Origin: Dehalococcoidia bacterium
GTDB taxonomy: Bacteria; Chloroflexota; Dehalococcoidia; GIF9; AB-539-J10
Length of the DNA: 64,000 nt
Reading direction: 5' to 3'
Assembly (NCBI GenBank): GCA_007129495.1
Contig: SKVJ01000039.1
Span: 20,303 to 84,302, forward strand
In this document: positions 19,985 to 49,223 of the stretch, piece by piece
Layout of the letters: the number at the start of each line of letters is the position of its first letter
How positions within the stretch are numbered: position 1 is the first letter of the stretch
Notes under the pieces: generated by a model
The model's database searches: none
Told to the model about the DNA's origin: nothing
The model's input: only the letters and a program-made list of their open reading frames with translations
Made by a program: the position numbers and the translations under genes

Positions 19985-22843
19985 ATGGCACACAGGATAG
20001 AGGTTGCGTTCAGAGCAGGTCTGGTTGATCCACGAGAGGATGGAGTTCTTGCCGGGATACGCGACTTGGGAATCACCGGGATCCAGCACGTGTCTGTAGC
20101 CGACGTGTATTGGGTTGATGCGTCCCTTCTCGAGACACAACTACGAGCTGCAGGTGCGATGCTGTTGTCGGATCCGGTTGCACAGGTATGTGGCTATGAT
20201 GGCGAACATGTGCGCGATAACTCACCATCGCTGTGGGCGCTGGAAGTTGCGTACAATCGTGGTGTCAGCGATCCACTCGAGGCTACTATTCTCAAAGGAC
20301 TGAAGGATATCGGCATCGACGATGTGCCACGAGCGCGTAGCGCGGTACGGTATGTCTTTCACGGATGGTGCAGCCAGGATGATATCGATGTCATCACGCA
20401 TCGCCTACTTCTTAATCCACTCGTACAACACGTGGTACAACCAGGAGAGGATGTATTTCCGGACGAGCCGACATATCAATTCGAATTACGTCAGGTACCT
20501 TTACTACATCTGGACGATGCCGCGCGGTCCGGAATCGCTTCGGCATATGGCTTCTCTCCGTCCGAACTCGATGCAATACATCACTACTTCGCTTCCATTG
20601 GTCGTGAACCGACAGATATCGAACTCGAAACGCTTGCGCAGTCCTGGTCGGAGCACTGTGTGCACAAAACTTTCAAGGCGAGGATCACTTTGGGTCGTGA
20701 GCGCATCGACAACCTGTTGCGCAGCACGATAATGCAGGCGACACGGGCCCTTGACAAGGAATGGTGTCTGTCCGTCTTTGAGGACAATGCCGGCGTGATT
20801 GATTTCGATGGCGAACACGCCATCTGCTTCAAGGTCGAAACCCACAATCACCCATCGGCTGTAGAACCCTATGGCGGAGCCGCAACTGGTCTCGGAGGCG
20901 TTGTTCGCGACGTTCTCGGGACCGGCCTCGGTGCCCGTCCTATTGCTAATACGGATGTGTTTTGCTTCGCTCCGCCTGATATGGCATACGATGCTCTTCC
21001 TGCTGGAGTGCTGCATCCAAGGAGAGTCTTCAAAGGCGTGAGGGCAGGTGTCGCCGACTATGGCAACAGGCTGGGCATCCCCACATTGAATGGGACTCTT
21101 CGGTTCGATCCGCGTTATATCGGAAATCCACTAGTGTTTTGCGGAACTGTCGGAATCATGCCTCGCTGGGCAGCCTATATGGGGAAACAGCAGCCGGGTG
21201 ATCTTGTAGTACTAATGGGAGGTCGCACAGGACGCGATGGTATTCACGGAGTCACGTTCGCTTCTGAGAAGCTGGATGACACCTCAGTTACCAGGTCCAG
21301 AAGCGCGGTACAGATCGGAAACGCGATTGTTGAGAAGCGCGTGATCGATGCTCTCATTCAGGCCCGTGACAAGAAGCTTTATCGGCGGATAACCGATTGT
21401 GGAGGTGGTGGCTTGTCTTCTGCGGTCGGTGAGATGGGAGCCGTGACCGGGGTGCGCGTGTATTTGGACAGGGTGCCTTTGAAGTACGCGGGTCTCTCGT
21501 ATGACGAGATATGGATATCTGAATCACAGGAACGCATGATCGTCGCCGTGCCCCCGGAGAACATCGACGAGTTAATGAAAGTCTGCAGTATCGAGAGGGT
21601 TGAAACCACCGTGATTGGTGAGTTCACGAATGACCGGCGCCTGGAGCTCGTCTATGATGGTGTACTTGTCGGCAATCTCGATATGGAGTTCTTGCACAAT
21701 GGACGCCCGCAACTGGACCTTGTTGCCACACGGCCGCATCAGGAGTGGACCGGCAAGGATCCCGCGTCCCCCGAGTCCTGCACGGCGGCGCTCTTTGCTG
21801 TTTTGTCCTCGCTCAATGTATGTAGCAAAGAGTGGGTTATTCGGCAATATGACCATGAGGTGCAGGGAGGTAGTGTCCTCAGGGCTCTTGTAGGGCCGGA
21901 GGCCGATGGTCCCGGAGATGCAGCCATCATCAAGCCGCTGCTTGAATCTGATCGCGGACTGGCGATAGCTAATGGGATCAACACTCGTTTTGGCGATATT
22001 GACGCTTACTGGATGGCGGCTTCCGCTATTGACGAAGCACTTCGCCAGGTAGTTGCTGTTGGGGCCGGCCTCGACAGGGTCGCGTTACTTGATAATTTCT
22101 GCTGGGGTCGTGCATCCGAACCGGAAAGCCTGTGGGCGCTTGTACAATCCTGTAAGGCCTGTCAGGACATGTCGTTGGCGTTTGACGTGCCCTTCATTTC
22201 CGGAAAGGACAGTCTCAACAATTTCACCGAGAGTGAGGGGAATATCATTACGATACCTCACACATTGCTGATCTCAGCCATTGCAGTGATGCCGGATGTC
22301 AATCGGGCCATCACGATGGATCTGAAGTCGGCCGGCAACTTGCTGTACGCTGTCGGCAGTACATTCGCAGAACTCGCTGGCTCGGAATACTGCAGCAATC
22401 TTCCTGACTGTGGTCGCAGAGTTCCTGAGGTTCGTTTCGAGACAGCACGTGCAACAATGCTGGCATTGGTTAATGCGATTAACGATGGACTGGTAGTTTC
22501 CTGTCACGATATGAGTGAAGGAGGGCTTGCCGTAGCCGTAGCCGAAATGGCATTTGCTGGAGCGCTCGGCGCGAACATCAGCATCTCTCGTGTGCCACTG
22601 GGTGAGAGCATTGACAGAAACGACATAATCCTTTTCTCGGAATCCAACAGTCGGTTTGTAGTCGAGGTTCCGGTAAGGCAGTCGGCCGAGTTCGAGCGGC
22701 GTATGAGTGGGGTATCCTGTGCGCAGATAGGAACCGTCATGGACGATGACAATCTTCACATATTGGGACTGGATGGTACGCCGGTAGTTTCTGCGACGTT
22801 GCGTGAATTGAAAGCCGCCTGGAAGCAGCCACTGGCCTGGTAG
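19985..22843 (+). CDS. purL: Phosphoribosylformylglycinamidine synthase PurL with N-terminal PurS-like domains
   Basis: WSEHCVHK, KVETHNHPS, DCGGGGL, SESQERM, ISGKDSL; N-terminal GLVDP...LLSDPV and GVSDP...LLLNPLV PurS-like repeats. Confidence 0.97.
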   Translation: MAHRIEVAFRAGLVDPREDGVLAGIRDLGITGIQHVSVADVYWVDASLLETQLRAAGAMLLSDPVAQVCGYDGEHVRDNSPSLWALEVAYNRGVSDPLEATILKGLKDIGIDDVPRARSAVRYVFHGWCSQDDIDVITHRLLLNPLVQHVVQPGEDVFPDEPTYQFELRQVPLLHLDDAARSGIASAYGFSPSELDAIHHYFASIGREPTDIELETLAQSWSEHCVHKTFKARITLGRERIDNLLRSTIMQATRALDKEWCLSVFEDNAGVIDFDGEHAICFKVETHNHPSAVEPYGGAATGLGGVVRDVLGTGLGARPIANTDVFCFAPPDMAYDALPAGVLHPRRVFKGVRAGVADYGNRLGIPTLNGTLRFDPRYIGNPLVFCGTVGIMPRWAAYMGKQQPGDLVVLMGGRTGRDGIHGVTFASEKLDDTSVTRSRSAVQIGNAIVEKRVIDALIQARDKKLYRRITDCGGGGLSSAVGEMGAVTGVRVYLDRVPLKYAGLSYDEIWISESQERMIVAVPPENIDELMKVCSIERVETTVIGEFTNDRRLELVYDGVLVGNLDMEFLHNGRPQLDLVATRPHQEWTGKDPASPESCTAALFAVLSSLNVCSKEWVIRQYDHEVQGGSVLRALVGPEADGPGDAAIIKPLLESDRGLAIANGINTRFGDIDAYWMAASAIDEALRQVVAVGAGLDRVALLDNFCWGRASEPESLWALVQSCKACQDMSLAFDVPFISGKDSLNNFTESEGNIITIPHTLLISAIAVMPDVNRAITMDLKSAGNLLYAVGSTFAELAGSEYCSNLPDCGRRVPEVRFETARATMLALVNAINDGLVVSCHDMSEGGLAVAVAEMAFAGALGANISISRVPLGESIDRNDIILFSESNSRFVVEVPVRQSAEFERRMSGVSCAQIGTVMDDDNLHILGLDGTPVVSATLRELKAAWKQPLAW

Positions 22844-22848
22844 ACAGA

Positions 22849-23613
22849 ATGGGCAAACCAAGAGTACTGGTTCTCAGAGCGCCGGGAACCAACTGTGATC
22901 TCGAAACGGCCTACGCGTTTGAACTTGCGGGGGCCGAATCATCGCTCGTCCACATCACTCGCATGATCTCCCATGAGGTAACTTTGGCGGAGTGTTCTAT
23001 CTTCGTTATTCCCGGCGGATTCAGTTACGGTGATGATCTTGGTGCCGGAAAGGTGATGGCAAACGAATTGGATCAACGCCTTCATGACCAGGTGGCCGAG
23101 TTTGTGGCTCGAGGTGGCCTGGTGCTTGGGATCTGCAATGGCTTTCAGGTTCTGGTAAGGGCTGGGCTGCTACCTGTCCCGTTTGGCGGACAGCGGTCAA
23201 GTCTTCTGGTCAACAGATCCGGTCGATTTGAATGCCGCTGGATTCATCTGCGCATTGCTCCGGGAAATCCGTGCGTATTCACACCTGGCGTTGTCGCTCT
23301 TGATCTTGCAGTTGCGCACGGCGAAGGCAGATTGTATGTGCCTGAATCGAGCGAATCTGATTTGACTCCTGTGCTCTACTATGCCCGACCAGATGGGCGT
23401 GAGCCTGAGTACCCCGCGGATCCGAACGGATCGTTCAAACATATTGCCGGGCTTTGTGATGAATCGGGCAGGATTTTCGGGCTGATGCCGCATCCCGAGC
23501 GGTTTGTGCGTTTGTCCCAGCACCCACGGTGGAGCACCAGGGCTGAAAGGGATGGTCCTGGTGATGGGCTGGCATTCTTCGTGAACGCAGTGAATTATGC
23601 CCGGAGTTTGTAG
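22849..23613 (+). CDS. purQ: FGAM synthase glutaminase subunit
   Basis: PGTNCD, PGGFSYGD, GICNGFQ, AHGEG, MPHPER. Confidence 0.96.
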   Translation: MGKPRVLVLRAPGTNCDLETAYAFELAGAESSLVHITRMISHEVTLAECSIFVIPGGFSYGDDLGAGKVMANELDQRLHDQVAEFVARGGLVLGICNGFQVLVRAGLLPVPFGGQRSSLLVNRSGRFECRWIHLRIAPGNPCVFTPGVVALDLAVAHGEGRLYVPESSESDLTPVLYYARPDGREPEYPADPNGSFKHIAGLCDESGRIFGLMPHPERFVRLSQHPRWSTRAERDGPGDGLAFFVNAVNYARSL

Positions 23614-23629: not shown

Positions 23630-24622
23630 TCAAATGTGGCTGATATCCACCAATCGCTCGTAGTCAATCAGGCCGCTCTCAGCCGAGTTTTCTACTTCAA
23701 TCCCTGCTTCTGCTGCTGCTGCGACCGGATTGAGGCCACCGAGCAAGATCATGCCTACCTTGTTCATACCAACTTCTATCTGACATATCGGCTCACTGGT
23801 GTTGCCGAGAAGGTAGACACCATGAATGCCCGCAGCTCGAAGTTCCTCGATGCGCCTTTCGACTACGACACGCGACGGAGCGAGAATTTCGCGGAAATTG
23901 GCGAGGATGCGTCCTGTGCCGGATTCAGCAGCATTTCTGACATCTGTCATTCCGGCGCGTATGTACTGTTCCGAAGGATCAAGGGAAGTGCCATCATACT
24001 TGATAATGGCAACGAACCGCCGTGGCCTCCCGCTCTTGAGTTCCAGTACGCCCCCGAAGCGTGACTCAATGGGGACCGAGGACTTCAGCAGGACACCATT
24101 CACAACCACTCCGCACACGGTTGCCAGACCTACCATCCCTGCCGGCACCACACGCGTGCCTAATTTCTCCCCCTCGTGAGCCACTGACACCAGCCGGCTC
24201 GCACAGAGATTGCGGTCGAAGGCCGGTTGCATCTCTTGTAGCGCGTTGCGAAAGTCATCGGCGCGGAAGAGCGAAGTGTTTACGGGAACAAGTCCTGTCC
24301 TGCGGTTCGGGTCGAACGTGGTCTGGAACGCGAGGAGTTGCAGTTTCTCGATGATGAACCCCACCTGTTCCGGTGCGAGTGCATTGCGCAACTCATCGAG
24401 CCCCTCCCAGGTAATGATTCTGCCATCCCGTCCTTTGGGCTCGGTATAGCCTCGTTCGTCGGTCATCCGCAGGTGATACCGTACTGCTCTCTCGCTCAGA
24501 AAGACACCGTGTCTCTCCAGGTCACGAGAAATCGTGATGGATCCGAGGGGTTCGGCTGATTCCGACAGAACCTTCAGAATGGCGATGGTCTTTCGTTCGG
24601 TGTCTCTATCAAGGGTCTGCAT
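23630..24622 (-). CDS. nrpR: NrpR-type nitrogen repressor (wHTH plus single NRD/DUF128 domain)
   Basis: N-terminal LSERAVRYHL...GRIIT..G..EL; C-terminal ATVC...NGVLLK, YDGTSLDP, LANFRE, GGLNPVAA. Confidence 0.9.
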   Translation of the reverse strand: MQTLDRDTERKTIAILKVLSESAEPLGSITISRDLERHGVFLSERAVRYHLRMTDERGYTEPKGRDGRIITWEGLDELRNALAPEQVGFIIEKLQLLAFQTTFDPNRRTGLVPVNTSLFRADDFRNALQEMQPAFDRNLCASRLVSVAHEGEKLGTRVVPAGMVGLATVCGVVVNGVLLKSSVPIESRFGGVLELKSGRPRRFVAIIKYDGTSLDPSEQYIRAGMTDVRNAAESGTGRILANFREILAPSRVVVERRIEELRAAGIHGVYLLGNTSEPICQIEVGMNKVGMILLGGLNPVAAAAEAGIEVENSAESGLIDYERLVDISHI

Positions 24623-24689
24623 CAGTGAATTCTCGGTGCCGGCTCACCTTTATTCGTGGCCGGGTGCTCTGCAGGGACAGTATACAGTG

Positions 24690-25307
24690 TCAGGCACTGG
24701 AATCCGACGGGTGTTGACCTTGAATCCCCGCAATATGCAGGAAGTACTGGTGTACACGCAGGTCTGGCACGAACTCGGGATGAAAGCTGGTGGCGAAAAT
24801 ACGGGATTGTTGACAGGCCACAATGGTTCCGCTGTGCAGCCGGGAAATGACGCGGACCTTCGGTCCGCATGACTCGATAATCGGAGCTCGAATGAAGACT
24901 CCACGAAAGACGGAACCCGCGAGACCATCTATCATCAAGTCTTCCTCGAAGCTTTGCACCTGTCTGCCAAAGGCATTGCGAGCTACGGAGACGTCGAGAA
25001 GTCCGAGAGGAGTCATACTGTGGCTGGTGACCGTCTTGGCTAGCACGATGATGCCAGCACAGGTGCCGAATGTAGGGAGACCGTTAATGATAGCGTTCAG
25101 CAATGGCTCGCGGAGGGCAAACTCATCGATTAGCTTGAGAAGCGTCGTCGATTCTCCTCCCGGCAGAATGATTCCGTCGATGCCTTCCAGGTGTTCTGGC
25201 AGGCGCACTTCTCGTACGCTCGCCCCAAGCTGTTTCAGAGCCGCGCTGTGCTCCATGAATGACCCTTGCAGGCACAGGACACCAATCGTCGGGCGACCGG
25301 ATATCAT
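24690..25307 (-). CDS. pdxT: PLP synthase glutaminase subunit
   Basis: GVLCLQGSF.EH, LPGGEST, GTCAG, RNAFGRQVQSF, VFIRAP, FHPE; ATGA overlap with purF. Confidence 0.96.
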   Translation of the reverse strand: MISGRPTIGVLCLQGSFMEHSAALKQLGASVREVRLPEHLEGIDGIILPGGESTTLLKLIDEFALREPLLNAIINGLPTFGTCAGIIVLAKTVTSHSMTPLGLLDVSVARNAFGRQVQSFEEDLMIDGLAGSVFRGVFIRAPIIESCGPKVRVISRLHSGTIVACQQSRIFATSFHPEFVPDLRVHQYFLHIAGIQGQHPSDSSA

Positions 25308-26734
25308 GGTGCGGTCTCCAGCGCCAGCTTGCCCAGTCCCATCTGGACAGGCACCGGGTACTGGCCGGTGAAGCAGGCCGTACAAAGGCTGCTACACGGG
25401 CGTTGCAGTGCTTTCTGTAGTCCTTCAAGGCTGATGTAACCGAGAGAATCGGCCTGAACATGCTTCTGTATTTCGGCAACTGAGTAGCGGGCTGCGATAA
25501 GCTCAGATTCGGTCGGAATGTCCACGCCAAGAAAGCAGGGGTGGATCAGCGGCGGGGCACAAATTCTGAGGTGAACCTCTCGTGCACCAGCGGCTCGCAG
25601 AAGAGCGACTACGTGTGGTGTGGTCGTGCCGCGAACGATGCTGTCATCCAGCACGACAAGTCGTTTACCCGCTATCGTGCCGGAAAGTGGATTGAACTTC
25701 AATTGTACGCCGAGGTCTCTCAGGCGCTGGTCGGGAGCAATGAACGTGCGGCCAATATAACGATTCTTGAGCAGCCCTTCACAGTACGGGATGCCGGATG
25801 CATCAGCGAAACCGATAGCGGCGGGAATTGCGGAATCCGGAATGCCAAGTACGAGATCTGCGTCGACCGGGTATTCACGCCAGAGTTGCGCACCCATATC
25901 CTGTCTACTGTCATAGACGAGCCTGTTCTCAAGCGTACTGTCGGGTCGTGCGAGATAGATGTATTCGAAGGCACAGAATGCATGGCGCTGCCCCTCTCCT
26001 ATGTGCAGTCGCGTAACACCATCCGCGCCAAATGCGAGCAGCTCGCCAGGCTCAAGTTCACGTTCGAATCGTGCGCCGATATGGTCGAGGGCACATGATT
26101 CGGAAGCCACAACCGGACTCAAACCGATGTATCCCAGGCACAGAGGGCGAACCCCGTTGGGATCACGCACGGCGATAAGCCTGTCTGTCGTGAGCAGGGT
26201 GAGGGAGTAGGCGCCTATGAGACGACGGGTTGCGGAAGCGACTCGCTCCACCCAATTATGACCGGGTGTCGAAAGGATGAGGTTTGCGATCACTTCGGAA
26301 TCTGTCGTTGCACTGAACTTGAATCCCTTCTCAAGCAGTTCCTGACGAAGCTGGACGGCGTTCACAATGTTGCCGTTATGCGCCAGTGCGATCTTGCCTT
26401 CAGGACCTGATACCACTATCGGCTGAGCATTGACGCTGCTGTTCGTTCCAGTAGTTGAATAGCGGTTGTGACCAATTCCAGAGAAGCCACTCAGACGGGA
26501 GAGCGACTCTTCATCGAATACCTGTGAGACAAGCCCGATTGCTGCATGGCGCTTGAGGTCGCGTCCATTAGAGACCACAATACCGCTGCTCTCCTGGCCG
26601 CGGTGCTGTAGCGCGAATAACGCGAAGAATATCAGGCGGGCCACGTCTTCGGGTGGGGAAAAAGTGCCGAAGACAGCGCACTTGTCATGGATCATGCTTG
26701 ATACAACCTCAGTAGTCCCTGAGAGTGCTGTCAA
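25304..26734 (-). CDS. purF: Amidophosphoribosyltransferase
   Basis: Propeptide then CAVFG (Ntn Cys), LQHRGQE, GHNRYST, VVLDDSIVRGTT, Fe-S Cys; start may be ATG 26695. Confidence 0.97.
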   Translation of the reverse strand: MTALSGTTEVVSSMIHDKCAVFGTFSPPEDVARLIFFALFALQHRGQESSGIVVSNGRDLKRHAAIGLVSQVFDEESLSRLSGFSGIGHNRYSTTGTNSSVNAQPIVVSGPEGKIALAHNGNIVNAVQLRQELLEKGFKFSATTDSEVIANLILSTPGHNWVERVASATRRLIGAYSLTLLTTDRLIAVRDPNGVRPLCLGYIGLSPVVASESCALDHIGARFERELEPGELLAFGADGVTRLHIGEGQRHAFCAFEYIYLARPDSTLENRLVYDSRQDMGAQLWREYPVDADLVLGIPDSAIPAAIGFADASGIPYCEGLLKNRYIGRTFIAPDQRLRDLGVQLKFNPLSGTIAGKRLVVLDDSIVRGTTTPHVVALLRAAGAREVHLRICAPPLIHPCFLGVDIPTESELIAARYSVAEIQKHVQADSLGYISLEGLQKALQRPCSSLCTACFTGQYPVPVQMGLGKLALETAP

Positions 26735-27836
26735 CTCGGTTGCGTCTAGTTGAGTTCTCGTTCATCAAGTCCACGAACTGATGAAAGAGGTATGTGCTGT
26801 CCAGGGGCCCCGGCGTACCTTCAGCATGATACTGGATGGAGATCAGGGGATACTCCTCATGAGTGATACCCTCGACAGTGCCATCGTTCAGGTTCACATG
26901 GCTTATGGCGATGCCTTGAGGAAGGGTTTCACCAGCCACAGCGTAACCATGATTTTGAGTCGTGATATATACGCGTCCTGTGTGGACGTCACGCACTGGA
27001 TGATTCCCGCCATGGTGGCCGAACTTCAGTTTGAAGGTCTGACCGCCCAGCGCGCGTGCGATAACCTGGTGGCCGAGGCAGACACCCATCAGAGGCACAC
27101 GGCCCAGCAACTGGCGCATCACCTCCTCGAGGTCGGTCAAGTGGGCCGGATCTCCAGGTCCGGGTGACAGCAGGACACCATCGGGAGACAACTCGCGTAT
27201 GCGATCAAGGCCGGCAGAGACAGGCACAACCGTAACCCTGCAGCCAGCGGCTGTGAGGTGTCTGATGATACTTTGCTTCACACCGCAGTCAACCAGAACT
27301 ACGTGATACGCCTCGTCGGGCGTAGTGGCAGTGGCCACTCGCTCGCTGTCCGTACTCACTTCATGGGCCAGTGGCATCTGTCCGTATGCCAGCGTAGAGC
27401 GAAGTTCACGCAGGGCGTCTTCCGGCAGGAGATCAGATGTGAGGACACCCATCATGACGCCGGCGGCCCGGAGCTTACGTGTCAGAGCGCGTGTATCCAG
27501 ACCTGCGATACCGGGGATGCCGTGTGTCGACAGATAGCTATCGAGTGTTTGGACGGACTGGAAATGGCTTGGTGTTGCACAGTGCTCGCGCACCACAAGG
27601 CCACGCGCCTGGACATGAGGCGACTCGTCATCGATCGGATTGATTCCGTAGTTGCCGACAAGTGGATATGTAAGCACCAGCAACTGGCCCCTGAACGAAG
27701 GGTCCGTCAGCATCTCCTGGTAGCCTGTCATGCTTGTGTCAAAAACTACCTCGCCGTACGTGGTAGTGTCAGCTCCAAATGACTCCCCCTCGTACGTAGT
27801 ACCATCTTCGAGTATCAGGTAGGCTTTCTTAGTCAT
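26709..27836 (-). CDS. carA: Carbamoyl-phosphate synthase small (glutaminase) subunit
   Basis: GEVVFDTSMTGYQE..TDPS, LSPGPGDP, GVCLGHQ, QNHGYAV, QYHAE. Confidence 0.97.
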   Translation of the reverse strand: MTKKAYLILEDGTTYEGESFGADTTTYGEVVFDTSMTGYQEMLTDPSFRGQLLVLTYPLVGNYGINPIDDESPHVQARGLVVREHCATPSHFQSVQTLDSYLSTHGIPGIAGLDTRALTRKLRAAGVMMGVLTSDLLPEDALRELRSTLAYGQMPLAHEVSTDSERVATATTPDEAYHVVLVDCGVKQSIIRHLTAAGCRVTVVPVSAGLDRIRELSPDGVLLSPGPGDPAHLTDLEEVMRQLLGRVPLMGVCLGHQVIARALGGQTFKLKFGHHGGNHPVRDVHTGRVYITTQNHGYAVAGETLPQGIAISHVNLNDGTVEGITHEEYPLISIQYHAEGTPGPLDSTYLFHQFVDLMNENSTRRNRVDSTLRDY

Positions 27837-27880
27837 ATCGTCCACTCCTGACGGGCGGTACGTATTCAACGGTCACCGGA

Positions 27881-29638
27881 TCAACCATGGAATCTGTTGG
27901 TGATCGGAAGGCGACGGTCGCGACCGAATGCCCGAGTCGTTATTTTGATTCCCGGCGGTGCCTGGCGTCTCTTGTACTCACTGTGATCGACGAGCTGTGC
28001 GGTGCGCTCAACGATGTCCGCGTCATGGCCAAGTGCGACTATCTGTGCCACGCTTCTATCGTCTTCCACGTACAGCTTGAGGATAGGATCCAGTACTTCA
28101 TAGGGTGGAAGACTATCGCTGTCTTTTTGATTCGGTCGCAGCTCTGCCGACGGTGGCCGGCACATGACCCTAGGTGGGATGACACAATCCGGGCCCAGTG
28201 AGTTGCGATGGTGCGACAATTCGTATACAAGAGACTTGGGAACGTCCTTGAGTACGGCGAAACCTCCAGCCATGTCGCCATACAGTGTAGTGTACCCGGT
28301 GGCCATCTCACTCTTGTTACCAGTAGTTAAGACAAGCCAGCGGAACTTGTTTGAGAGAGACATCAGTATTGTTCCGCGTATACGCGCCTGAAGATTTTCC
28401 TCTGTCGAGTCTTCTTCCAGTCCTTCGAAAACCGGGCCGAGCATTTCTAGGAACGCAGTGTATGCAGGCTCCACGGGAATTGTGATTAGACGGATGTTGA
28501 GGTTATCAGCGACTGCTTGAGCGTTGTCGCTACTCTCGGAAGCTGTGAATCTGGATGGCAGGCAGACTGCGACAACATTCTCCGGTCCGAGCGCATCGCA
28601 TGCGATGCAGGCCACAAGAGACGAATCGATACCACCAGACAGCCCTATGACGACCTGGTCGAATCCGTTCTTGCGCACGTAATCTGCAGTCCCGAGCACC
28701 AGGGCGCGATATACCTCGTCGCACTTGTCGACAGGCTGAAACGTGCAGGGTTGCAGCGCAGGCTTCGCGTGGTCACCCACAGTGGCGGCGATGTCTATCT
28801 CGGTGTTATCCGTCGTGCGGCCGCGCACCAACGTCTCAGTCTTGCGCCATCTCGGGTCGTGAAGGCGGGCACGAAACACGGATTCGATCTGCACGTCGGC
28901 AACGACCAGATCTTCCTTGAACGCTTCTCCCGCAGCCAGCACTGCTCCCTGTTCATCGACGATCATACTCTCGCCGTCAAATACCAATTCGTCCTGTCCG
29001 CCAACCAGATTACACATAGCGAACACGCAGACGTTATCTCTCGCCCTGGTTGCCAGCATCTGACGACGGCTGTCGCATTTTCCGCGATGATAGGGAGATG
29101 CGCTCAGATTCACGATGATCTCCGCGCCATTCGCAGCCTGTACGCTGGCGGGTCCACCCTCGTACCAGATGTCTTCGCAGATAGTGACGCCGATGCCGAC
29201 TCCGCCAAGACGGAATACCGGACTGGCACGGCCTGCGCGGAAGTATCGGTTCTCATCAAAGACGCCGTAGTTGGGGAGGAAGACCTTATGGTAGATACCA
29301 CGGACGCCGCCATCGTAGAGAATCGCTGCCGCGTTGTATACATCGGAATCGCTGTCCACGAATCCTACTATCACGAGAGAATGGCGCGTGTGTTCAGCGA
29401 TAAGGCGAAGGGAACACTGATTCTCGTTGATGAAGCGAGGGCGTAACAACAGGTCTTCAGGCGGATACCCGCTTATGGCCAACTCGGGGAACACAATTAC
29501 ATCAGCACCTCTCGCCACCGCCTCATCAACAGATGAAATGATGCGCTCGGTGTTGCCAGCCAGGTCACCGACGGTACTGTTGATCTGCGCGAGTGCGATA
29601 CGAACAGACAGCGCTTGCTGTCGGTCGGGGTAGCTCAT
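27881..29638 (-). CDS. nadE: Glutamine-dependent NAD+ synthetase
   Basis: Nitrilase domain (FPEL, YHK.FLPNY, ICEDIW) plus GLSGGIDS, ENLQARIRG, TGNKSE; start uncertain (29638/29647/29686). Confidence 0.96.
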   Translation of the reverse strand: MSYPDRQQALSVRIALAQINSTVGDLAGNTERIISSVDEAVARGADVIVFPELAISGYPPEDLLLRPRFINENQCSLRLIAEHTRHSLVIVGFVDSDSDVYNAAAILYDGGVRGIYHKVFLPNYGVFDENRYFRAGRASPVFRLGGVGIGVTICEDIWYEGGPASVQAANGAEIIVNLSASPYHRGKCDSRRQMLATRARDNVCVFAMCNLVGGQDELVFDGESMIVDEQGAVLAAGEAFKEDLVVADVQIESVFRARLHDPRWRKTETLVRGRTTDNTEIDIAATVGDHAKPALQPCTFQPVDKCDEVYRALVLGTADYVRKNGFDQVVIGLSGGIDSSLVACIACDALGPENVVAVCLPSRFTASESSDNAQAVADNLNIRLITIPVEPAYTAFLEMLGPVFEGLEEDSTEENLQARIRGTILMSLSNKFRWLVLTTGNKSEMATGYTTLYGDMAGGFAVLKDVPKSLVYELSHHRNSLGPDCVIPPRVMCRPPSAELRPNQKDSDSLPPYEVLDPILKLYVEDDRSVAQIVALGHDADIVERTAQLVDHSEYKRRQAPPGIKITTRAFGRDRRLPITNRFHG

Positions 29639-37682: not shown

Positions 37683-37692
37683 GATGTTATTC

Positions 37693-40909: not shown

Positions 40910-40933
40910 GTAGATGTTCTCCCCCGGTATATA

Positions 40934-41545
40934 CTATGAAGCGGCCAAGTGGAGGAAGTTCTTGTATAGGCGAAGGCCATCAGCACCACTCTTCTCAGGA
41001 TGAAACTGCGTGGCAACGGTAAGTCCGTGCTTCACTACACTACAAAAAGGCACGCCGTACTCCGTGGTTGCATTGACAAGCGATGGGTCCACTGGCTCGA
41101 CCACGTAGCTGTGCACGAAGTAGAAACTGGCGTCGTTTGGAATGCCGTCGAATAGCGCCGGAACACCTTCGTAGTGGACCTGGTTCCAGCCCATGTGAGG
41201 CACTTTTTGAGAGGCAGGCAAGCGAACAACCCGGCCCCGGAATATGCCGAGACAGTCTTGGCCGATGCCTTCCTCCGAGTGCTCGAACAGAACCTGCATC
41301 CCCATGCAGATCCCAAGGAAAGGGCGCTCAGCCGCAATCCACTGCGTCACCATCTGAGACGAACCACGAAGTTGCATGTTGGCCATTGTATCGGTGGCTG
41401 CGCCTACCCCAGGCAGTATCATCGCGTGAGCTTTTCGCGCGTCCAAAGCCGATTCGACCACAAGCGGGTCGCTGCCTAGAAACCGCAACGCCGAAATAAC
41501 ACTTCTGAGGTTTCCTGCTCCGTAGTCCACGACTGCTACATGCAT
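40934..41545 (-). CDS. hisH: Imidazole glycerol phosphate synthase glutaminase subunit
   Basis: DYGAGNL.SV, LPGVG, GICMGMQ, VPHMGWN, YFVHSY, QFHPEKS. Confidence 0.96.
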   Translation of the reverse strand: MHVAVVDYGAGNLRSVISALRFLGSDPLVVESALDARKAHAMILPGVGAATDTMANMQLRGSSQMVTQWIAAERPFLGICMGMQVLFEHSEEGIGQDCLGIFRGRVVRLPASQKVPHMGWNQVHYEGVPALFDGIPNDASFYFVHSYVVEPVDPSLVNATTEYGVPFCSVVKHGLTVATQFHPEKSGADGLRLYKNFLHLAAS

Positions 41546-41567
41546 GATGCTGATACCGCTCCTCTTG

Positions 41568-41939
41568 TCAGTTCTGGATCGCTACTTTCACGGTGTTCAT
41601 TCGGGCTACTACCTGCTGGTTGCTTCCATGTTTCACCACCACGTTCATCTGCTCCAAGACCTCATAGTCGCCATTTGCCACTGAAGCCGAGTCCCACAAT
41701 ACCGGGAAGCTGGCGTCTCTTCTGTCGGATGTGCCGACCTGCAACCACGTGTTCTGTCCAACGCTGCGGATATACCAGTTATTCATAATCCGCACGACTG
41801 GGCCGGACAACCCCATAGAGTCCAAATCCCGGCGGAGAAGTCCTTCGTCAACATTCTCCTTCAGGAGAATGCGACCGGACAGGATCCTGGATGCTTCTGA
41901 TGTCGCGACGAAATGGGGGCCCCAATTATCCTGTTGCAT
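41568..41939 (-). CDS. Hypothetical protein (123 aa) inside the glutamate synthase operon
   Basis: Strong AAGGAGG SD; fills the gap between co-oriented genes; beta-rich C-terminus with WD....NG.YEV. Confidence 0.8.
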   Translation of the reverse strand: MQQDNWGPHFVATSEASRILSGRILLKENVDEGLLRRDLDSMGLSGPVVRIMNNWYIRSVGQNTWLQVGTSDRRDASFPVLWDSASVANGDYEVLEQMNVVVKHGSNQQVVARMNTVKVAIQN

Positions 41940-42029
41940 TACTCTTCCTCCTTGGTCGCAAGAATCTCCGGCAGAATGAGTTCATCGTGCGAATCGGGTG
42001 AACATCACGCGATTCCACGTCGCTCCTTC

Positions 42030-43622
42030 CTAGCTGTCAAGTACCGCTAGTGCCTCCTCTCTATATGCATCCATTACGTAGGGGATGCCTGTGACCAGAG
42101 CGCATTCCTGAGTCAGTGACATAAGGTCCCTCCGGCTGATTGCGGACACACTGAAGTTGCGGCTGCCAGCCATAATCTGCTGCAGGCCGACCTTAAGTTT
42201 CTGCGCATAGCTGTAAATGCCTATGGCACCGAGTGGTATTCTCGCCATCTCTTCGTGGCCGACTATCTGCTTCACATCTTCGTAAGAGACGAAGATCTCC
42301 TCCGGTGTAGAGCCGAACTGCCCGACTGTGTTTGGCAGTTTGCCATCGGCTATCCACTTGGCAATATTTTTGCCGACCATACCAGGAATCATGAGGGCGC
42401 GGCCCATGCAGACAGCCTTGACAAATGGCGCACCCAGCGCTAGGGCTTTGAAGACACCATCCTCGCTGCTGAACCCGCCGGCAAATGCGATATCGGGAAC
42501 ACGTTCGCCCCTGATCTCAAGTCGCTCGCAGAATTCGTAGGCGGCTGAGTGCAGATAGATGCTGGGGATTCCCCATTCCTCCATCATGCGCCAGGGGCTC
42601 ATCCCGGTTCCACCGGGAGCGCCATCTATAGTGATCAGGTCAAGCCGGGCTTTCGAGCCCCATTTGAGGGACATTGCAAGTTCGCGCAGACTGTAGGCTC
42701 CGGTCTTGAGAGTGATGCGCTTGAAGCCGATGTCACGCAACTCCTGTACCGCCTGAAGGAAACCCTCCTCGTCGATGAATCCCAGACGGCTATGACGCTC
42801 GACTTCCTTGAGCGCGCCGCTGGTGAATGCCGATTTGCTCGCCGTAAGCGAGGGGTCAGGTGTCACGATGTACCCCCGCTGCTGCAATTGAAGGGCTCGC
42901 TCCAGCGAGCCGACTTTAATTTCCCCGCCGATGCACTTGGCACCCTGCCCCCATTTGAGTTCGATTGTCTCGAGACCATGCCTGTCATGTACGTATTCTG
43001 CGGCACCGAGGCGTGTATCTTCCACGTTCAGTTGCACGAGGATCTCGCCATAACCATCATGATACCGCCGATAGGTTTCGATGCGACGGTCCATGTCGGG
43101 CGCCCGTCGTACTTTGCCACTGCTATCGAGTTCCAGTTCGGGATCAATGCCGCAGACGTTTTCACCGCAGACGAGTGTGATGCCGCTCAGCGCGGCACCT
43201 ACCGCGAAATGGTCCCAGTTCTTGCGTGCAATCTCTGTTGATCCGAGTGCGCCTGTGAACACAGGCACGCGCAAAGGTACCTTGGAATCCCATCCATAGC
43301 CGGTTTCCGTGTTCACCACGGGAAATGTCGCGGTATCGGGATTGCCTGCTACGCCTTCGGGTAATCCCTTGGCTCCCAGCGCATAACCCTGAATGTTAAG
43401 GTGGGAGTAGTCGACCGGATAGTCTTTGTCTGCTCCGGCAGTAACGTCGCCAAAAGGTCCCGGATAGATCAGTTCGCGGCCACGGAAAGTAGCCTTGAAG
43501 ACCTCGCAGTTACCGGTGCATCCGTCGATGCAACGTGAGCACAGGCCACTCATGGGCACGACATCGCGTGAACGGTTGGTGGTACGAGTGGCGTCATTGC
43601 CATTGGGGCGTTTCAAATTCAT
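42030..43622 (-). CDS. Second FMN-binding glutamate-synthase-family protein with N-terminal Cys cluster
   Basis: CSRCIDGCTGNC, GALGS, ELKWGQGAKCIGGE, IDGAPGGTGMSP, AGG....VFKALALGA, MGRA. Confidence 0.88.
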   Translation of the reverse strand: MNLKRPNGNDATRTTNRSRDVVPMSGLCSRCIDGCTGNCEVFKATFRGRELIYPGPFGDVTAGADKDYPVDYSHLNIQGYALGAKGLPEGVAGNPDTATFPVVNTETGYGWDSKVPLRVPVFTGALGSTEIARKNWDHFAVGAALSGITLVCGENVCGIDPELELDSSGKVRRAPDMDRRIETYRRYHDGYGEILVQLNVEDTRLGAAEYVHDRHGLETIELKWGQGAKCIGGEIKVGSLERALQLQQRGYIVTPDPSLTASKSAFTSGALKEVERHSRLGFIDEEGFLQAVQELRDIGFKRITLKTGAYSLRELAMSLKWGSKARLDLITIDGAPGGTGMSPWRMMEEWGIPSIYLHSAAYEFCERLEIRGERVPDIAFAGGFSSEDGVFKALALGAPFVKAVCMGRALMIPGMVGKNIAKWIADGKLPNTVGQFGSTPEEIFVSYEDVKQIVGHEEMARIPLGAIGIYSYAQKLKVGLQQIMAGSRNFSVSAISRRDLMSLTQECALVTGIPYVMDAYREEALAVLDS

Positions 43623-43692
43623 GGCCTATCCTCCTCAGATGTTCAAGAGAGTTTCTATCTGCTGGCTCACATGTGCTCTAGTTGCAGTGCAG

Positions 43693-44151
43693 TCAGATCA
43701 CAAGGCAATGTGATGTTTCTTCCACGACCATTAGTGCACCATTTGGACATACGCTGATGCACCTCGACACATCGCGGTCGAAACATCCATCGCACTTGAC
43801 AACCTTGCCTGTTTGTTCATCTTTGCGTATTGCACCGAACGGACAAACCAGCATGCATGTGCCACAACCGATGCACTTCTCCCTGTCGACGAGTACAAAC
43901 CCCGTGTTCTCGTCCCTGCTCATAGCTCCGGTGATGCAGGCATCGATACAGGAAGCGTTTGGACAGTGGCGACATCGTATCGATATACAATGCAGGCCGT
44001 TGTGCTCGACCCTGATTCCTCCAGCAGGAGGAGCAAGTCGTTTCTTCAGCGCTTTCGCGGGATCATCATTCCCAGCGTGATGTGCTTCGCAGAAGACACG
44101 GCACAATCCACAGCCAATACACAGGTCTTCTTGTATGACGACACGTCTCAT
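43693..44151 (-). CDS. 4Fe-4S dicluster electron-transfer protein (HydN/CooF/DmsB-like)
   Basis: CIGCGLC..C, CRHC...C..AC, CIGCGTC..VCPFG, KCDGC....C..VCP; GGAGG SD. Confidence 0.93.
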   Translation of the reverse strand: MRRVVIQEDLCIGCGLCRVFCEAHHAGNDDPAKALKKRLAPPAGGIRVEHNGLHCISIRCRHCPNASCIDACITGAMSRDENTGFVLVDREKCIGCGTCMLVCPFGAIRKDEQTGKVVKCDGCFDRDVSRCISVCPNGALMVVEETSHCLVI

Positions 44152-44193
44152 CTTGTACTTCCTCCAACGCAACCGAAAGAGTTGTGCGGTGCC

Positions 44194-44384: not shown

Positions 44385-44413
44385 TTGACATCGCTGGGTG
44401 TCCTTCCTATAAT
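44385..44413 (+). promoter_or_regulatory. Consensus sigma70 promoter of pyrG
   Basis: TTGACA-17 bp-TATAAT. Confidence 0.85.
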
Positions 44414-44440
44414 GCTGGAGGTTGGTGTCCGGCCAGAATC

Positions 44441-46069
44441 ATGGCAAAACATATCTTTGTCACCGGCGGTGTTGTCAGTTCAGTAGGCAAAGGCATAACC
44501 GTCGCCTCGATCGGCACTCTCCTCAAGGCGCGCGGCATAGATGTCGCGGTCCAGAAACTCGATCCCTATCTCAATGTAGACCCAGGTACTATGTCGCCCT
44601 ATCAACATGGTGAGGTGTATGTAACTGAGGATGGTGCCGAGACCGACCTGGATCTGGGACATTATGAGCGCTTCATCGGAGTCGACCTCTCGTGCGACGC
44701 CAATGCGACATCCGGTCGCATCTACAGTTCCGTCATTAACCATGAGCGGGAGGGCAGGTTTCTTGGGGGAACGATTCAGGTGGTGCCGCATGTTACCAAC
44801 GAAATCAAGCGATTGATCTTGAACTGTGCTCAGCAACTGGATGCTGGTGTCCTCATAACTGAGATTGGTGGTACCGTCGGAGACATCGAAGGGCAACCTT
44901 TCATTGAGGCCATACGGCAAATCCGCAAAGACGTAGGAAGAGGTAACGTCCTCTATATTCACGTGACGTATCTTCCTCACCTGATGTCTACCGGAGAGTT
45001 GAAGACTAAGCCAACCCAGCACAGCGTTCGGGAACTGCGCAGCATGGGTATTCAACCCGACATCATCGTGTGCCGGAGCGATCTTCCGATGCCGGATGAG
45101 CTCCGTGCCAAAATTGCGCTGTTCTGCGACGTGCCTTCGAGCGCGGTGGTTCCACTCCCGACCGTCGAAAGCATTTACGAAGTGCCGCTGGTGCTAGCCC
45201 GTTCGGGAATTGGGCAATTGATTGCTCGCACGCTTGCACTTCCCGAAGGCGAGGGTGATTTGTCCGCCTGGGAAGAAATGGTGACACGCCTGCATCAAGC
45301 TGAGGAGACAGTGTCAATCGCGCTGGTGGGCAAGTATGTGGAATTTGAAGACACCTATCTATCTGTACGGGAGGCGTTGCATCATGCTGCGCTGTTTCAC
45401 AACCGGAAGCTTGACCTTTTCTGGGTGCACTCTGAAGAGCTTACAGAGGAGAATGTCGTGTCGAAACTCGCCTTAGCACAGGGTATTGTTGTTCCGGGAG
45501 GGTTCGGTATTCGCGGTATTGAGGGCATGGTTCTGGCTGCCCGGTATGCACGGGAACACAGCATTCCCTATTTTGGTTTGTGTTTGGGTATGCAGATCAT
45601 GGTGATCGAGCTTGCCCGCTGCGCGCTTGGCGACACATGTGTTAATTCGGCGGAATTCGAGCCCGAGGTTGCGCATCCCATCATTGATTTGCTTCCAGGA
45701 CAACGGACGGTCGATCGTAAGGGTGGTACGATGCGTCTTGGGAGTTACCCCTGCAGACTGATGCCTCATTCCAAAGCTGCTCAAGCCTATGGCGTTGACC
45801 TCGTCAATGAACGGCATCGTCATCGCTTTGAATTCAACAATGAGTACCGTGAATTGCTCTCGGGGCAGGGACTTCTGTTCAGTGGTGTATCGATGGATGG
45901 GAGCCTTGTTGAAATAGCCGAGATCAAGGAACACCCATGGATGATCGGCTGCCAGTTTCACCCTGAGTTCAAATCACGTCCGAATTGCCCGCATCCCCTG
46001 TTTCGCGAGTTCATACACGCCGCGATACAGACGGTACCTCCAGGCAGTCAGGCTCAGCTTCCGTTATAG
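44441..46069 (+). CDS. pyrG: CTP synthase
   Basis: FVTGGVVSSVGKG, DPYLNVDPGTMSPYQHGEV, KTKPTQHSV, LCLGMQ, ERHRHR, QFHPE. Confidence 0.98.
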   Translation: MAKHIFVTGGVVSSVGKGITVASIGTLLKARGIDVAVQKLDPYLNVDPGTMSPYQHGEVYVTEDGAETDLDLGHYERFIGVDLSCDANATSGRIYSSVINHEREGRFLGGTIQVVPHVTNEIKRLILNCAQQLDAGVLITEIGGTVGDIEGQPFIEAIRQIRKDVGRGNVLYIHVTYLPHLMSTGELKTKPTQHSVRELRSMGIQPDIIVCRSDLPMPDELRAKIALFCDVPSSAVVPLPTVESIYEVPLVLARSGIGQLIARTLALPEGEGDLSAWEEMVTRLHQAEETVSIALVGKYVEFEDTYLSVREALHHAALFHNRKLDLFWVHSEELTEENVVSKLALAQGIVVPGGFGIRGIEGMVLAARYAREHSIPYFGLCLGMQIMVIELARCALGDTCVNSAEFEPEVAHPIIDLLPGQRTVDRKGGTMRLGSYPCRLMPHSKAAQAYGVDLVNERHRHRFEFNNEYRELLSGQGLLFSGVSMDGSLVEIAEIKEHPWMIGCQFHPEFKSRPNCPHPLFREFIHAAIQTVPPGSQAQLPL

Positions 46070-47433: not shown

Positions 47434-48897
47434 TCAGAGGTCGGGGTGCCTGAGGTGCCATTCGGTAGCCTGCTCGTAGGCGTGCCCTGCTTGTATCAAG
47501 ACGTCCTCTCTGAATCGGTTGGCCATGAGTTGCAGTCCTACGGGTAGTCCGTCCGTGAAGCCACAGGGGATCGACAGCGCGGGAATACCAGCAATGTTCG
47601 CCGGGATGGTCAAGATATCTGTCAAGTACATCTGGAGCAGATCGTGGATCTTAGAACCCAGGGGGAACGCGACAGTAGGTGATGTGGGCACTGCAAGCAG
47701 GTCACACTGTTCAAATGCCCGCTGAAACTCTTCGTTGATGCGGTGCCTCACTTTCAGCGCTTTGACGTAGTAGGCATTGTAGTAGCCCGAAGAGAGCGTG
47801 TGGGTACCGAGCATTATTCTGCGCTTCACTTCAGGGCCAAAGCCCTCCCCGCGCGTTGCCGTAACGGAGTCTTCGGTGGTAGCCCGTTGTCGTGAGAACC
47901 CGTATTTCACGCCATCGAATCGTGCTAGATTGGCCGATGCTTCTGACGGGGCAATGATGTAGTAAGCAGCAAGGGCATACTCCGTGGAAGGTAGTGAGAT
48001 ATCGCGATGGATATAGGCTCCCATGCGTTCCAGAAGGAGAATCGCATCCTCCACGCAGGTGCGGACTTCGGGCAGTATGCCAGCGCCGAAGTATTCTTTC
48101 GGGACACCAATTCTCAGACCACGGACACCGCGGTTAAGAAACGATGTGAAGTCTGGAACTGATACCGGGGCTGAGGTGGAGTCTTTGTGGCACTGGCCAG
48201 CGATAGCATTCATTACCAGAGCGCAGTCATGCAAGTCCCTGGTAAACGGACCGATTTGATCGAGAGAGCTGGCAAATGCGATGAGGCCGTATCGGCTGAC
48301 GCGACCATAGGTCGGTTTCAGCCCCACCACCCCGCAGAAGCCGGCAGGTTGTCTTATGCTTCCTCCGGTATCTGATCCCAGCGTAAACAGAGCTTCACCG
48401 GCCGAGAGTGCTGCCGCAGAACCGCCACTGCTCCCCCCTGGTACGAAGTCACGATTCCACGGATTGCGAGAAGGGAAGAAGGCTGAGTGTTCAGTCGATG
48501 AGCCCATGGCGAACTCATCCATGTTGGATTTTCCGAGTAAGACAGAACCCTGCCTGAGTAACCGGTCAATAACGGTTGCATCATATGGTGGCACAAAACC
48601 TTCCAGCATCCTGGATCCGCATGTAGTTACAATGCCGCGTGTGCAGAGCAGGTCTTTGGCTATGAACGGAATTCCCGTCAGAGGTGCTGCGCTGTCGGAG
48701 GCGAGAAGTCGGTCGGCCGCGGATGCCTGGGCAAGTGCGTGCTCGGAACATACGGTGAGGAGCGCGTTCACATGAGGTTCGACGCTCGCCAACCTGTTGA
48801 GGCATGCATCAGTCAACTCACGCGCTGAAATTTCGCGGGAGTGGAGCAGCTTCTGTGCCTGGTGTATGGGCAACTCGTGAAGCTGATCAACACTCAT
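47434..48897 (-). CDS. gatA: Asp/Glu-tRNA amidotransferase subunit A
   Basis: GKSNMDEFAMGSS, PGGSSGGS, GSDTGGSIRQPA, EVKRRIMLG. Confidence 0.97.
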   Translation of the reverse strand: MSVDQLHELPIHQAQKLLHSREISARELTDACLNRLASVEPHVNALLTVCSEHALAQASAADRLLASDSAAPLTGIPFIAKDLLCTRGIVTTCGSRMLEGFVPPYDATVIDRLLRQGSVLLGKSNMDEFAMGSSTEHSAFFPSRNPWNRDFVPGGSSGGSAAALSAGEALFTLGSDTGGSIRQPAGFCGVVGLKPTYGRVSRYGLIAFASSLDQIGPFTRDLHDCALVMNAIAGQCHKDSTSAPVSVPDFTSFLNRGVRGLRIGVPKEYFGAGILPEVRTCVEDAILLLERMGAYIHRDISLPSTEYALAAYYIIAPSEASANLARFDGVKYGFSRQRATTEDSVTATRGEGFGPEVKRRIMLGTHTLSSGYYNAYYVKALKVRHRINEEFQRAFEQCDLLAVPTSPTVAFPLGSKIHDLLQMYLTDILTIPANIAGIPALSIPCGFTDGLPVGLQLMANRFREDVLIQAGHAYEQATEWHLRHPDL

Positions 48898-48938
48898 TCG
48901 AAATACAACTCCTCACGGTCTCCCAAAGCCGTACTGTG

Positions 48939-49223
48939 TTATTCCAGAATTGGGGGTACGCGAAAGCAGAAATCCTGACTTTGGGGGGCATTGGCAAGAA
49001 CCTCTTCCTTGGTCAGGGAAGGCTGGGTAATATCTTCGCGGAAAACGTTGTGAAGCTGACTGGCGTGTACCGCTGCAGGTATATGGTCAGTATCGAGTTT
49101 CTCGAGCATGCTGAAATGCTCGAGAACGATGGACAGGTCTTCCTGGAATCGCTCTACTTCGGCATCTGAGATGCCGAGGCGAGCTAACCAGGCGATATGA
49201 CGTACCTGTTCGATGGATAACAT
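48939..49223 (-). CDS. gatC: Asp/Glu-tRNA amidotransferase subunit C
   Basis: EQVRHIAWLARL, NVFRED, LANAP, FRVPPILE; upstream of gatA. Confidence 0.95.
   Translation of the reverse strand: MLSIEQVRHIAWLARLGISDAEVERFQEDLSIVLEHFSMLEKLDTDHIPAAVHASQLHNVFREDITQPSLTKEEVLANAPQSQDFCFRVPPILE

Follow-up and report, generated by a model that had tools for sequence, protein, structure and literature searches.

The DNA analysed here, a stretch of 64,000 nucleotides from contig SKVJ01000039.1 (hereafter the window), belongs to an uncultured soda-lake Dehalococcoidia bacterium. The genome is a metagenome-assembled genome (MAG) of 2.107 Mb in 75 contigs, 93.8% complete with an estimated contamination of 5.02%. 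Between positions 19985 and 49253, glutamine amidotransferase genes of unrelated pathways surround the genes of glutamine synthetase (GS), glutamate dehydrogenase and glutamate synthase (GOGAT). Genes were mapped by an NCBIfam scan of 55 open reading frames (ORFs) of the window, a Pfam scan of 18 ORFs, and ARAGORN for tRNAs. The block holds 24 protein genes and a gene for tRNA-Glu (Table 1), and a tie to glutamine or glutamate is evident for 22 of the 24, the exceptions being TrpS and a protein of 123 amino acids (aa), u123. All gene identities that the original prediction had given within about 29 kb were recovered by these scans, as was its statement that nearly every gene is linked to glutamine or glutamate. 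The same theme had been said to continue in the flanks. There, GltX, tRNA-Gln, the alpha, beta and gamma parts of a 2-oxoacid oxidoreductase and an FmdA-type amidase were indeed found, and the claim for argJ holds for window bases 1-124 only. The GOGAT is of the split archaeal type, in which three separate ORFs carry the amidotransferase, FMN/Fe-S and GXGXG parts of GltB (Pfam); Fdx and a pyridine-nucleotide-disulfide oxidoreductase, PNDR, to judge by their conserved adjacency, would be its electron partners. GS makes glutamine, while GOGAT and every amidotransferase return glutamine to glutamate; the block therefore encodes most of the glutamine-to-glutamate cycle.

A glutaminase census of the genome, conducted with Pfam families and local tblastn, revealed 15 candidate glutaminase-bearing genes. 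Nine are inside the interval (purQ, pdxT, purF, carA, nadE, gltB1, hisH, pyrG and gatA) and six are outside (those for GlmS, TrpG, GuaA, a second PurF, a second PyrG and an amidase of unassigned substrate). Genome matches to PF00117 numbered six (CarA, PyrG, HisH, TrpG, GuaA and the second PyrG) and those to PF13522 four (PurF, GltB1, GlmS and the second PurF); PF01425 matched GatA and one further amidase, and PF07685 gave cross-hits only, to PdxT, PurQ and HisH. No paralogues of NadE, PdxT or PurQ were found in the genome by tblastn, and the genome matches to AsnB (PF00733), CobQ/CobB (PF07685) and Peptidase_C26 (PF07722) were cross-hits to genes already counted. The interval used for the count, 29,239 bp, makes up 1.4% of the genome. 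Against the observed maximum of nine genes per 29,239 bp, 1e6 random placements gave a maximum of six, reached 20 times, and none reached seven. The analytic bound on this clustering is P <= 6e-11 by genes and 8e-5 by transcription units (five of 11); when the amidase and the PyrG copy lacking the Cys are left out, the count is nine of 13. The glutamine-enzyme supercluster of the original prediction is confirmed as real.

Conservation of the block was followed in other assemblies (G, C and L numbers denote genomes, contigs and loci). The arrangement is kept from TsaC to GltX in G003 and G006, two genomes of the same genus. In G006, Gdh is 90% identical; in G003, it was not found at the locus, and the glnA-like match there is only 44% identical. 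The same order was observed as far as the contig ends in G013, G014 and L022. CarA, GltB1 and PyrG lie on one contig with equal spacing in at least six of 16 genus genomes (G000, G002, G003, G006, G007 and G009), and two of the three are so arranged in at least five further ones (G008, G010, G011, G013 and G014); in the remaining five, GltB1 is on short contigs. Identity of the stand-alone u530 protein within the genus is 81-87%, which places its gene with the most strongly conserved ones of the block, and u530 also occurs close to GOGAT genes in two Bathyarchaeia-labelled loci (L066 and L076). The GltB1 matches of G009 (C130:59866-61011) and G014 (C7:36763-37908), both of the same genus, contain one in-frame TGA each; sequencing error, pseudogene formation and codon recoding are possible causes.

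A smaller core is common to other families of the order. In G029, G036 and G039 it runs Fdx-HisH-PNDR-GltB1-HisF-GltB2-GltB3-NrpR-GlnR…GlnA-u123-NadE and is followed by a second NrpR; in G027 it is without HisH and HisF. CarA adjoins NadE in G029, G039 and L048, PdxT lies between PNDR and GltB1 in G019 and G024 (other genera of the window's family) and in L042, and NadE, PurQ, PurL and PdxT adjoin the core in L031. The original prediction had suggested that part of the arrangement (nadE/glnA/GOGAT/hisF) may be present in Dehalococcoides, and MAGs with the labels Dehalococcoidaceae and 'Dehalococcoides sp.' agree with this. Some genera of another family (G025:C7 and G040:C25; L117-L120) have a different, fused GOGAT form, whose open frames span 820-950 aa and have about 30-35% identity with GltB1; NrpR, HisF and Gdh of G025 are encoded together, about 10 kb from it. 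The u123 gene co-occurs with GOGAT, glnA and nadE genes across the order. Its product is modelled by AF2, with confidence over the folded part, as an Ig-like beta sandwich (mean pLDDT 85, residues 1-15 below 50), for which Foldseek found no PDB match at E <= 0.001 and the Atlas returned clusters of hypothetical proteins only. In L022 (14872-16584) and many relatives, an ammonium transporter gene and a PII gene lie inside the cluster, between glnR and glnA or gatB; in the genome of the window, amt-PII is on contig C48, adjoining a gene for a GAF/HAMP histidine kinase.

For a wider view, 80 loci of the genome collection, the best 80 of 587 confirmed matches, were grouped by record label; this set is biased to close relatives, and many of its loci are cut by contig ends. 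Of the loci with both GltB1 and GltB2, those with HisF between the two numbered 28 of 40 among the Chloroflexota-labelled, none of 22 among the archaea-labelled and one of 10 among those of other bacteria, that one being labelled Deltaproteobacteria. HisH accompanied Fdx and PNDR in 24/37, 0/15 and 1/8 loci of the same three groups, respectively. Bathyarchaeia-, Methanothrix- and Firmicutes-labelled loci share the order fdx-PNDR-gltB1-gltB2-gltB3. In the archaea-labelled relatives, nothing beyond fdx-PNDR-gltB1-3 is present, which argues that the block grew by accretion.

The recruited genes have glutaminase function, not pathway, as their common trait. The carA gene is in the block, and carB belongs to a pyr operon on C18, together with pyrB and a pyrK-like gene; pdxT is in the block, and pdxS is on C11. 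Sets of the pathway type are present elsewhere in the genome (trpE-G-D; purF-purM-purH; guaA beside purD and purB; pyrB..carB), glmS lies beside a glmU-like gene on C2, 36 kb upstream, and hisA-hisI is found by itself on C74, as is a second hisF on C30. Three genomes of another family likewise have a second HisF. A neofunctionalised hisF was considered and rejected: both HisF copies align with the sequence of the reconstructed HisF-LUCA structure across the CLDV and AID motifs.

Two of the clustered enzymes have paralogues outside the block. In the clustered PyrG, the GGFG motif, which we take to be the oxyanion loop, and the GLCLGMQ motif, whose Cys is presumably the glutaminase nucleophile, are both intact. 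The second PyrG (G000:C74:28562-30169; locus L103:5562-7175) is 53% identical to it. In the outside copies of G000, G003 and G006, the sequence reads GSSH…/GI(Q/D)(A/T)GMH, with no Cys and with GGFG replaced, and the HPEF stretch is kept; in the single PyrG copies of G029, G036 and G039, the motifs are intact. The second PyrG is not contamination, because in G003 it shares a 750-kb contig with the cluster. Judged by these motifs, the outside PyrG may be an ammonia-only CTP synthase. The N-terminal Cys is kept in both PurF copies. The outside PurF, encoded in purF-purM-purH, resembles at its N-terminus the PurF that other families have as their only copy, and it is therefore the clustered PurF that seems to be the additional paralogue. 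The view that the block is organised by shared glutamine gains support from a Cys-bearing PyrG inside and a Cys-less one outside, and from PdxT, CarA and PurLQ, which are placed differently in different lineages.

Table 1. Genes, transcription units and predicted control sites of the glutamine block (window positions)
Feature	Position	Strand	Basis or remark
Unit 1: Sir2-type deacylase, PurL, PurQ	19128..23613	+	intergenic gaps 2 and 5 nt; order repeated in G003 and G006
PurL, 952 aa, PurS-like N-terminal part	19985-22843	+	TIGR01736, 613.6 bits; PurS and FGAR-AT domains (Pfam)
PurQ	22849-23613	+	NF002252/TIGR01737
Unit 2: nadE-carA-purF-pdxT-nrpR	23630..29686	-	adjacent ORFs overlapping or 11-67 nt apart
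NrpR	23630-24622	-	PF01995, E 6e-72; PF08461 (HTH_12), E 1.4e-17
PdxT	24690-25385	-	TIGR03800, 219 bits
PurF (cluster copy)	25304-26734	-	TIGR01134, 504 bits
CarA	26709-27869	-	TIGR01368, 467 bits
NadE, two-domain (nitrilase and synthetase)	27881-29686	-	NF010588, 739 bits
Unit 3: Gdh	30138-31385	+	NF040817, 603 bits, under that model's 750-bit cut-off
GlnA, type I glutamine synthetase	31514-32896	-	TIGR00653, 539 bits; 89 nt beyond gatB
GlnR-box-like direct repeats GTAAC-N6-GAAAC-N6-GAAAC (predicted)	32928..32954	-	just upstream of glnA GATAAT -10
GatB	32986-34431	-	NF004012, 630 bits; 293 nt downstream of glnR-like gene
Unit 4, core operon: fdx, u530, u123, hisH, PNDR, gltB1, hisF, gltB2, gltB3, glnR-like	34725..44172	-	NCBIfam/Pfam matches
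GlnR-like OmpR-type regulator	34725-35396	-	solved-structure matches; Pfam GlnR domain below cut-off
GltB3 (GXGXG part)	35409-36176	-	PF01493
GltB2 (FMN/Fe-S part)	36180-37853	-	PF01645 and 4Fe-4S dicluster
HisF	37693-38475	-	NCBIfam/Pfam
GltB1 (Ntn amidotransferase part)	38450-39598	-	PF00310
HisH	40934-41545	-	NCBIfam/Pfam
u123, conserved 123-aa protein	41568-41939	-	16 distinct sequences aligned; no Pfam family
u530, FMN-type glutamate-synthase-family protein, 530 aa	42030-43622	-	name from Atlas features
NrpR-type operator (predicted) TACGGTAACCGGTTGCCGTA, core CGGYAA-N4-TTRCCG	44194-44213		over predicted transcript start
Unit 5: sigma-70 promoter (44385-44413) and pyrG	44385..46069	+	tRNA-Glu and trpS come next
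PyrG (cluster copy)	44441-46069	+	NF003792, 799 bits
tRNA-Glu	46119-46195	+	ARAGORN; between pyrG and trpS
Unit 6: gatC-gatA	47434..49253	-	family matches
GatA	47434-48897	-	TIGR00132, 581 bits
GatC	48939-49253	-	TIGR00135, 77.7 bits

At least six transcription units, distributed over the two strands, make up the block. Unit 2 combines four amidotransferases of four pathways and ends with nrpR. The N-terminus of PurL consists of one or two fused PurS-like segments (PF02700 and NF005019 matches, residues 4-67 and 86-148), and the gene of the Sir2-type NAD-dependent deacylase (NF001753) ends 2 nt 5' of purL. The promoter of pyrG, TTGACA-17-TATAAT, matches the sigma-70 consensus at 12/12 positions and is conserved in five genus loci; on the opposite strand of the fdx-pyrG spacer, the five aligned loci have TTGACA and then a palindrome. 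An extended -10 element is conserved upstream of nadE, as TGCTACAAT in G000, L022 and G003 and as TGTTACAAT in G006. Scans with sigma-70 and terminator consensus sequences gave totals no higher than those of shuffled sequences, with the pyrG promoter as the sole perfect match. No riboswitches were detected by Rfam, either at the gathering threshold or at E <= 0.1, and the only matches were two tRNAs. The spacer between nadE and gdh (29687-30137, 451 bp) is weakly conserved relative to G006; it includes a 107-aa ORF (29671-29994, plus strand), for which Pfam gave no family at E <= 0.001. An everted repeat, GTTGCC-N8-GGCAAC, is located there at about 29917.

Transcription was assessed from one metatranscriptome, X5, available as contigs and mapped on 29500-49450; 86% of the sampled words of 34700-44650 were present in it. 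A 4.4-kb RNA contig (39801-44199) extends from PNDR to Fdx, and further contigs (38176-39813, 37457-38088, 36169-37473 and 35485-35905) cover GltB1, HisF, GltB2 and GltB3. A separate contig, 31500-32894, covers glnA exactly, at a depth of 112.6, with gatB at 4-14, and glnA probably has its own transcript. Contig depth, which is a poor measure, was 113-138 for glnA, about 24 from Fdx to PNDR, about 16-17 for GltB1, 6-10 for HisF, GltB2 and GltB3, about 4 for Gdh, and 0-2.6 for PyrG, TrpS and GatA; contigs cannot prove transcript ends, and uncovered stretches (trpS and part of gatA) are not read as silence. Such a pattern fits separate units of widely differing transcript levels and does not suit a single co-expressed block.

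The predicted NrpR-type operator is located about 27 nt downstream of the TTGACA -35 element of the fdx promoter, and in relatives it starts a few nucleotides after the -10 element. In a genome scan with a position weight matrix (PWM), it scored 30.0 of 30.5 bits; the next best site scored 18.6 bits, shuffled genomes gave similarly weak matches, and no second site of 20 bits or more was found in the genome. In the 60-kb loci of seven relatives, one site each was found, and the strongest operator-like site was always before fdx, with scores of 15-28 bits in six of the seven and 11.2 bits in G027. The strict operator pattern was present in 23 of 36 Dehalococcoidia-type loci versus two of 23 others, both Bathyarchaeia-labelled. 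An RNA contig end at 44199, inside the operator, is a weak hint only. The operator consensus given for NrpR in PMC2723118 is GGAAN6TTCC. Exact GGAA-N6-TTCC occurs in two of the 25 strict sites, and there were no matches to it in the window, where 0.8 was expected. Two NrpR homologues in three Dehalococcoides species were noted earlier and ascribed to gene transfer (PMC1852104). The situation resembles the NrpR regulon of methanogens (nif, glnA and glnK-amtB in Methanococcus maripaludis) in the presence of an NrpR-family protein and in the 4-6-4 geometry of the operator, here GGnA-N6-TnCC versus GGAAN6TTCC. It differs in the bacterial host, in the sigma-70 promoters, in the third base of the half-site, which is usually C or T, and in having a single predicted target in the genome, GOGAT and not glnA or nif.

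A second inverted repeat, CGGCAAT-N15-ATTGCCG, lies at about 44309-44340, between the promoter of fdx and that of pyrG, and is conserved in five genus loci; its half-site is that of the operator, with the two halves spaced 11 bp, or one helical turn, more widely. Genome counts of the half-site pairs GGCAA-Nk-TTGCC and of the reverse order were not clearly above those of control half-sites. The operator palindrome, as CGGCAATAGGTTGCCG, is also found about 30-38 nt upstream of the fdx-GOGAT operon in two Bathyarchaeia-labelled loci (L061 and L071), which hints that operon and operator may have moved together between Bathyarchaeia and Dehalococcoidia.

The second regulator, the GlnR-like protein, matched the solved structures 8hig (E 2.8e-38, residues 24-220) and 8hih (E 2e-34, residues 11-218), and most other response regulators match it mainly over the C-terminal half. 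Its match to the Pfam GlnR N-terminal domain, PF21695, was 21.1 bits, under the cut-off of 27. Its gene neighbours are gltB3 and gatB, with no partner kinase gene beside it, as in an orphan regulator, and no histidine kinase was found among the 55 scanned window ORFs. According to PMC10235972, 8HIH and 8HML are GlnR structures, 8hih being the M. tuberculosis GlnR complex, and a GlnR box with an a-site and a b-site, gTnAc-n6-GaAAC, is described. The predicted repeats at glnA have equal geometry; the same geometry occurs in G006 and a looser form in L022, and the sole genome match to the triple pattern is the one upstream of glnA. The likeness to the actinobacterial GlnR regulon thus covers the full-length similarity to solved GlnR proteins and the a-site/b-site repeats upstream of glnA; the differences are another phylum, one box array found, a Pfam domain match below the cut-off and binding that is predicted.

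As far as motifs can tell, each regulator of the cluster has one recognisable target, and the other units share no signal. The original prediction had allowed for co-regulation of the whole block, under which the entire 29 kb would be one nitrogen regulon, switched by nitrogen status via NrpR, the GlnR-type protein or both. The two nitrogen regulators within the block would suit such a regulon, as would the position of nrpR at the end of the nadE-carA-purF-pdxT unit, a TACGG half-site that follows the conserved nadE -10 in G000, L022 and G003, and the half-site of the second inverted repeat between fdx and pyrG. The full operator and the GlnR-box array, however, occur once each in the genome, the strongest operator-like site of the seven relatives always precedes fdx, the units lie on two strands with promoters of their own and with no riboswitch, and RNA depth is very uneven. 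Co-regulation of the whole block is not upheld by these results, and we regard a single regulon as unlikely.

The reading that we favour, and consider on balance probable, is of a real neighbourhood, conserved in the genus and selected in appearance, that arose as glutamine-hydrolysing genes were added step by step to an older nitrogen-assimilation core, and that consists of several separately promoted units instead of one operon. In the most economical history, the oldest part would be the fdx-PNDR-gltB1-3 operon, common to Bathyarchaeia-labelled and other anaerobe loci. In Dehalococcoidales, hisH and hisF would then have been inserted, and a linkage to the GlnR-type regulator, glnA, nadE and nrpR established. 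In this genus, purLQ, pdxT, the second purF, carA, gdh, gatB, the Cys-bearing pyrG and gatCA would have been added. The claim that the block is organised around glutamine use and GS/GOGAT is sustained in this form, by growth around an older GOGAT operon and by glutaminase subunits present without their synthase partners. The data show the gene identities, the clustering, the conservation, the sequence of accretion and the place and uniqueness of the two DNA motifs, whereas the pairing of regulators with motifs, the direction of control and the selective reason are what we infer. NrpR would repress the GOGAT-hisHF operon until 2-oxoglutarate rises; the GlnR-type protein would drive glnA from boxes in place of a -35 element. 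Co-transcription of nadE-carA-purF-pdxT with nrpR would tie repressor supply to the expression of glutamine consumers, and pyrG, purLQ and gatCA have their own promoters.

Several observations weigh against stepwise accretion as we state it. Five candidate glutaminase genes are clearly outside the block (TrpG, GuaA, GlmS, PurF2 and the amidase on C19), and GlmS is on the same contig but 36 kb away. Conservation at the genus level may reflect recent common descent, not selection. With the clustered PurF being an extra paralogue, the block includes at least one gene that is not the only housekeeping copy. The other units are tied together by no common operator or riboswitch (PWM and pattern scans gave one site each), and no exact palindromic dyad is common to at least three of 12 intergenic regions. 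RNA contig depth in X5 is more than 100-fold apart between units (0-138 over the bins of 29500-49450), and contamination of the MAG is estimated at 5%.

The block might instead be a historical accident, in which a few chance rearrangements in a small, little-recombining genome were inherited by the genus without selection. The full block is seen in one genus only, pathway operons are generally loosened in this genome, as the isolated hisA-hisI and second hisF illustrate, and the extra PurF shows that gene gain occurs. The bounds on chance clustering obtained above, by genes and by units, speak against this explanation, as do the presence of the same gene classes in other arrangements in other lineages and the fact that the clustered PyrG paralogue is the Cys-bearing one; we hold it to be improbable.

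The original prediction had also raised a local glutamine hub. Here, neighbouring genes would lead to co-localised synthesis and assembly of GS, GOGAT and free glutaminase subunits, with local hand-over of glutamine. The gathered genes do encode stand-alone glutaminase subunits (HisH, PdxT, CarA, PurQ and GltB1) and not their synthase partners, and some lineages have three glutaminase subunits in one operon. Yet CarA and PdxT must meet CarB and PdxS, which are encoded elsewhere, contrary to assembly at the site of synthesis, and RNA contig depth differs greatly between units, so that such a hub seems quite doubtful. An assembly or binning artefact, which the fragmented MAG and its estimated contamination could suggest and which had been named as something that would undo the original prediction, can be dismissed with near certainty, as the interval is internal to one 87-kb contig, the gene order is identical in other assemblies, one of them the 750-kb contig of G003, and each of the 30 bins of 29500-49450 has cover in two DNA runs, X4 and X6, the depth of X4 being flat at 3.6-13.5 in 29 of the 30.

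With split GOGAT clusters of the archaeal type this locus shares three separate gltB ORFs and the fdx-PNDR-gltB1-gltB2-gltB3 order, but hisH and hisF are inserted here and eight further amidotransferase genes adjoin. In uber-operons, functionally linked genes are kept as neighbours. The block resembles these and the pathway operons (pur, pyr, his and trp) in the adjacency of functionally linked genes; unlike them, it joins genes by a shared substrate and half-reaction over six or more pathways, while carA/carB and pdxT/pdxS are split. No published description of the gene arrangement was found for Dehalococcoides or Dehalococcoidia, a provisional result, as most subscription journals were outside the coverage.

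When function is inferred from gene neighbourhoods, as is common practice, neighbours are assumed to belong to one pathway or complex. In this block, a substrate half-reaction is all that the neighbours have in common, and for its sake subunits of one enzyme are encoded apart. The analysis also brings to attention a CTP synthase paralogue without the glutaminase nucleophile and offers testable candidate nitrogen-control sites for Dehalococcoidia, one NrpR-type operator and one GlnR-box promoter. If selection maintains the block, there would be a constraint on balancing glutamine supply against all consumers in small-genome anaerobes. Tentatively, and as a possibility to which we give limited credence, Dehalococcoidales may keep a 'glutamine economy island', in which selection on glutaminase modules as a class repeatedly pulls free glutaminase subunits and Cys-bearing paralogues towards GS/GOGAT, balancing supply against spending; the balance could be achieved through linked dosage and NrpR feedback, or through physical assembly. 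Were this true, gene order would be set by a half-reaction shared across pathways, outside the usual operon picture.

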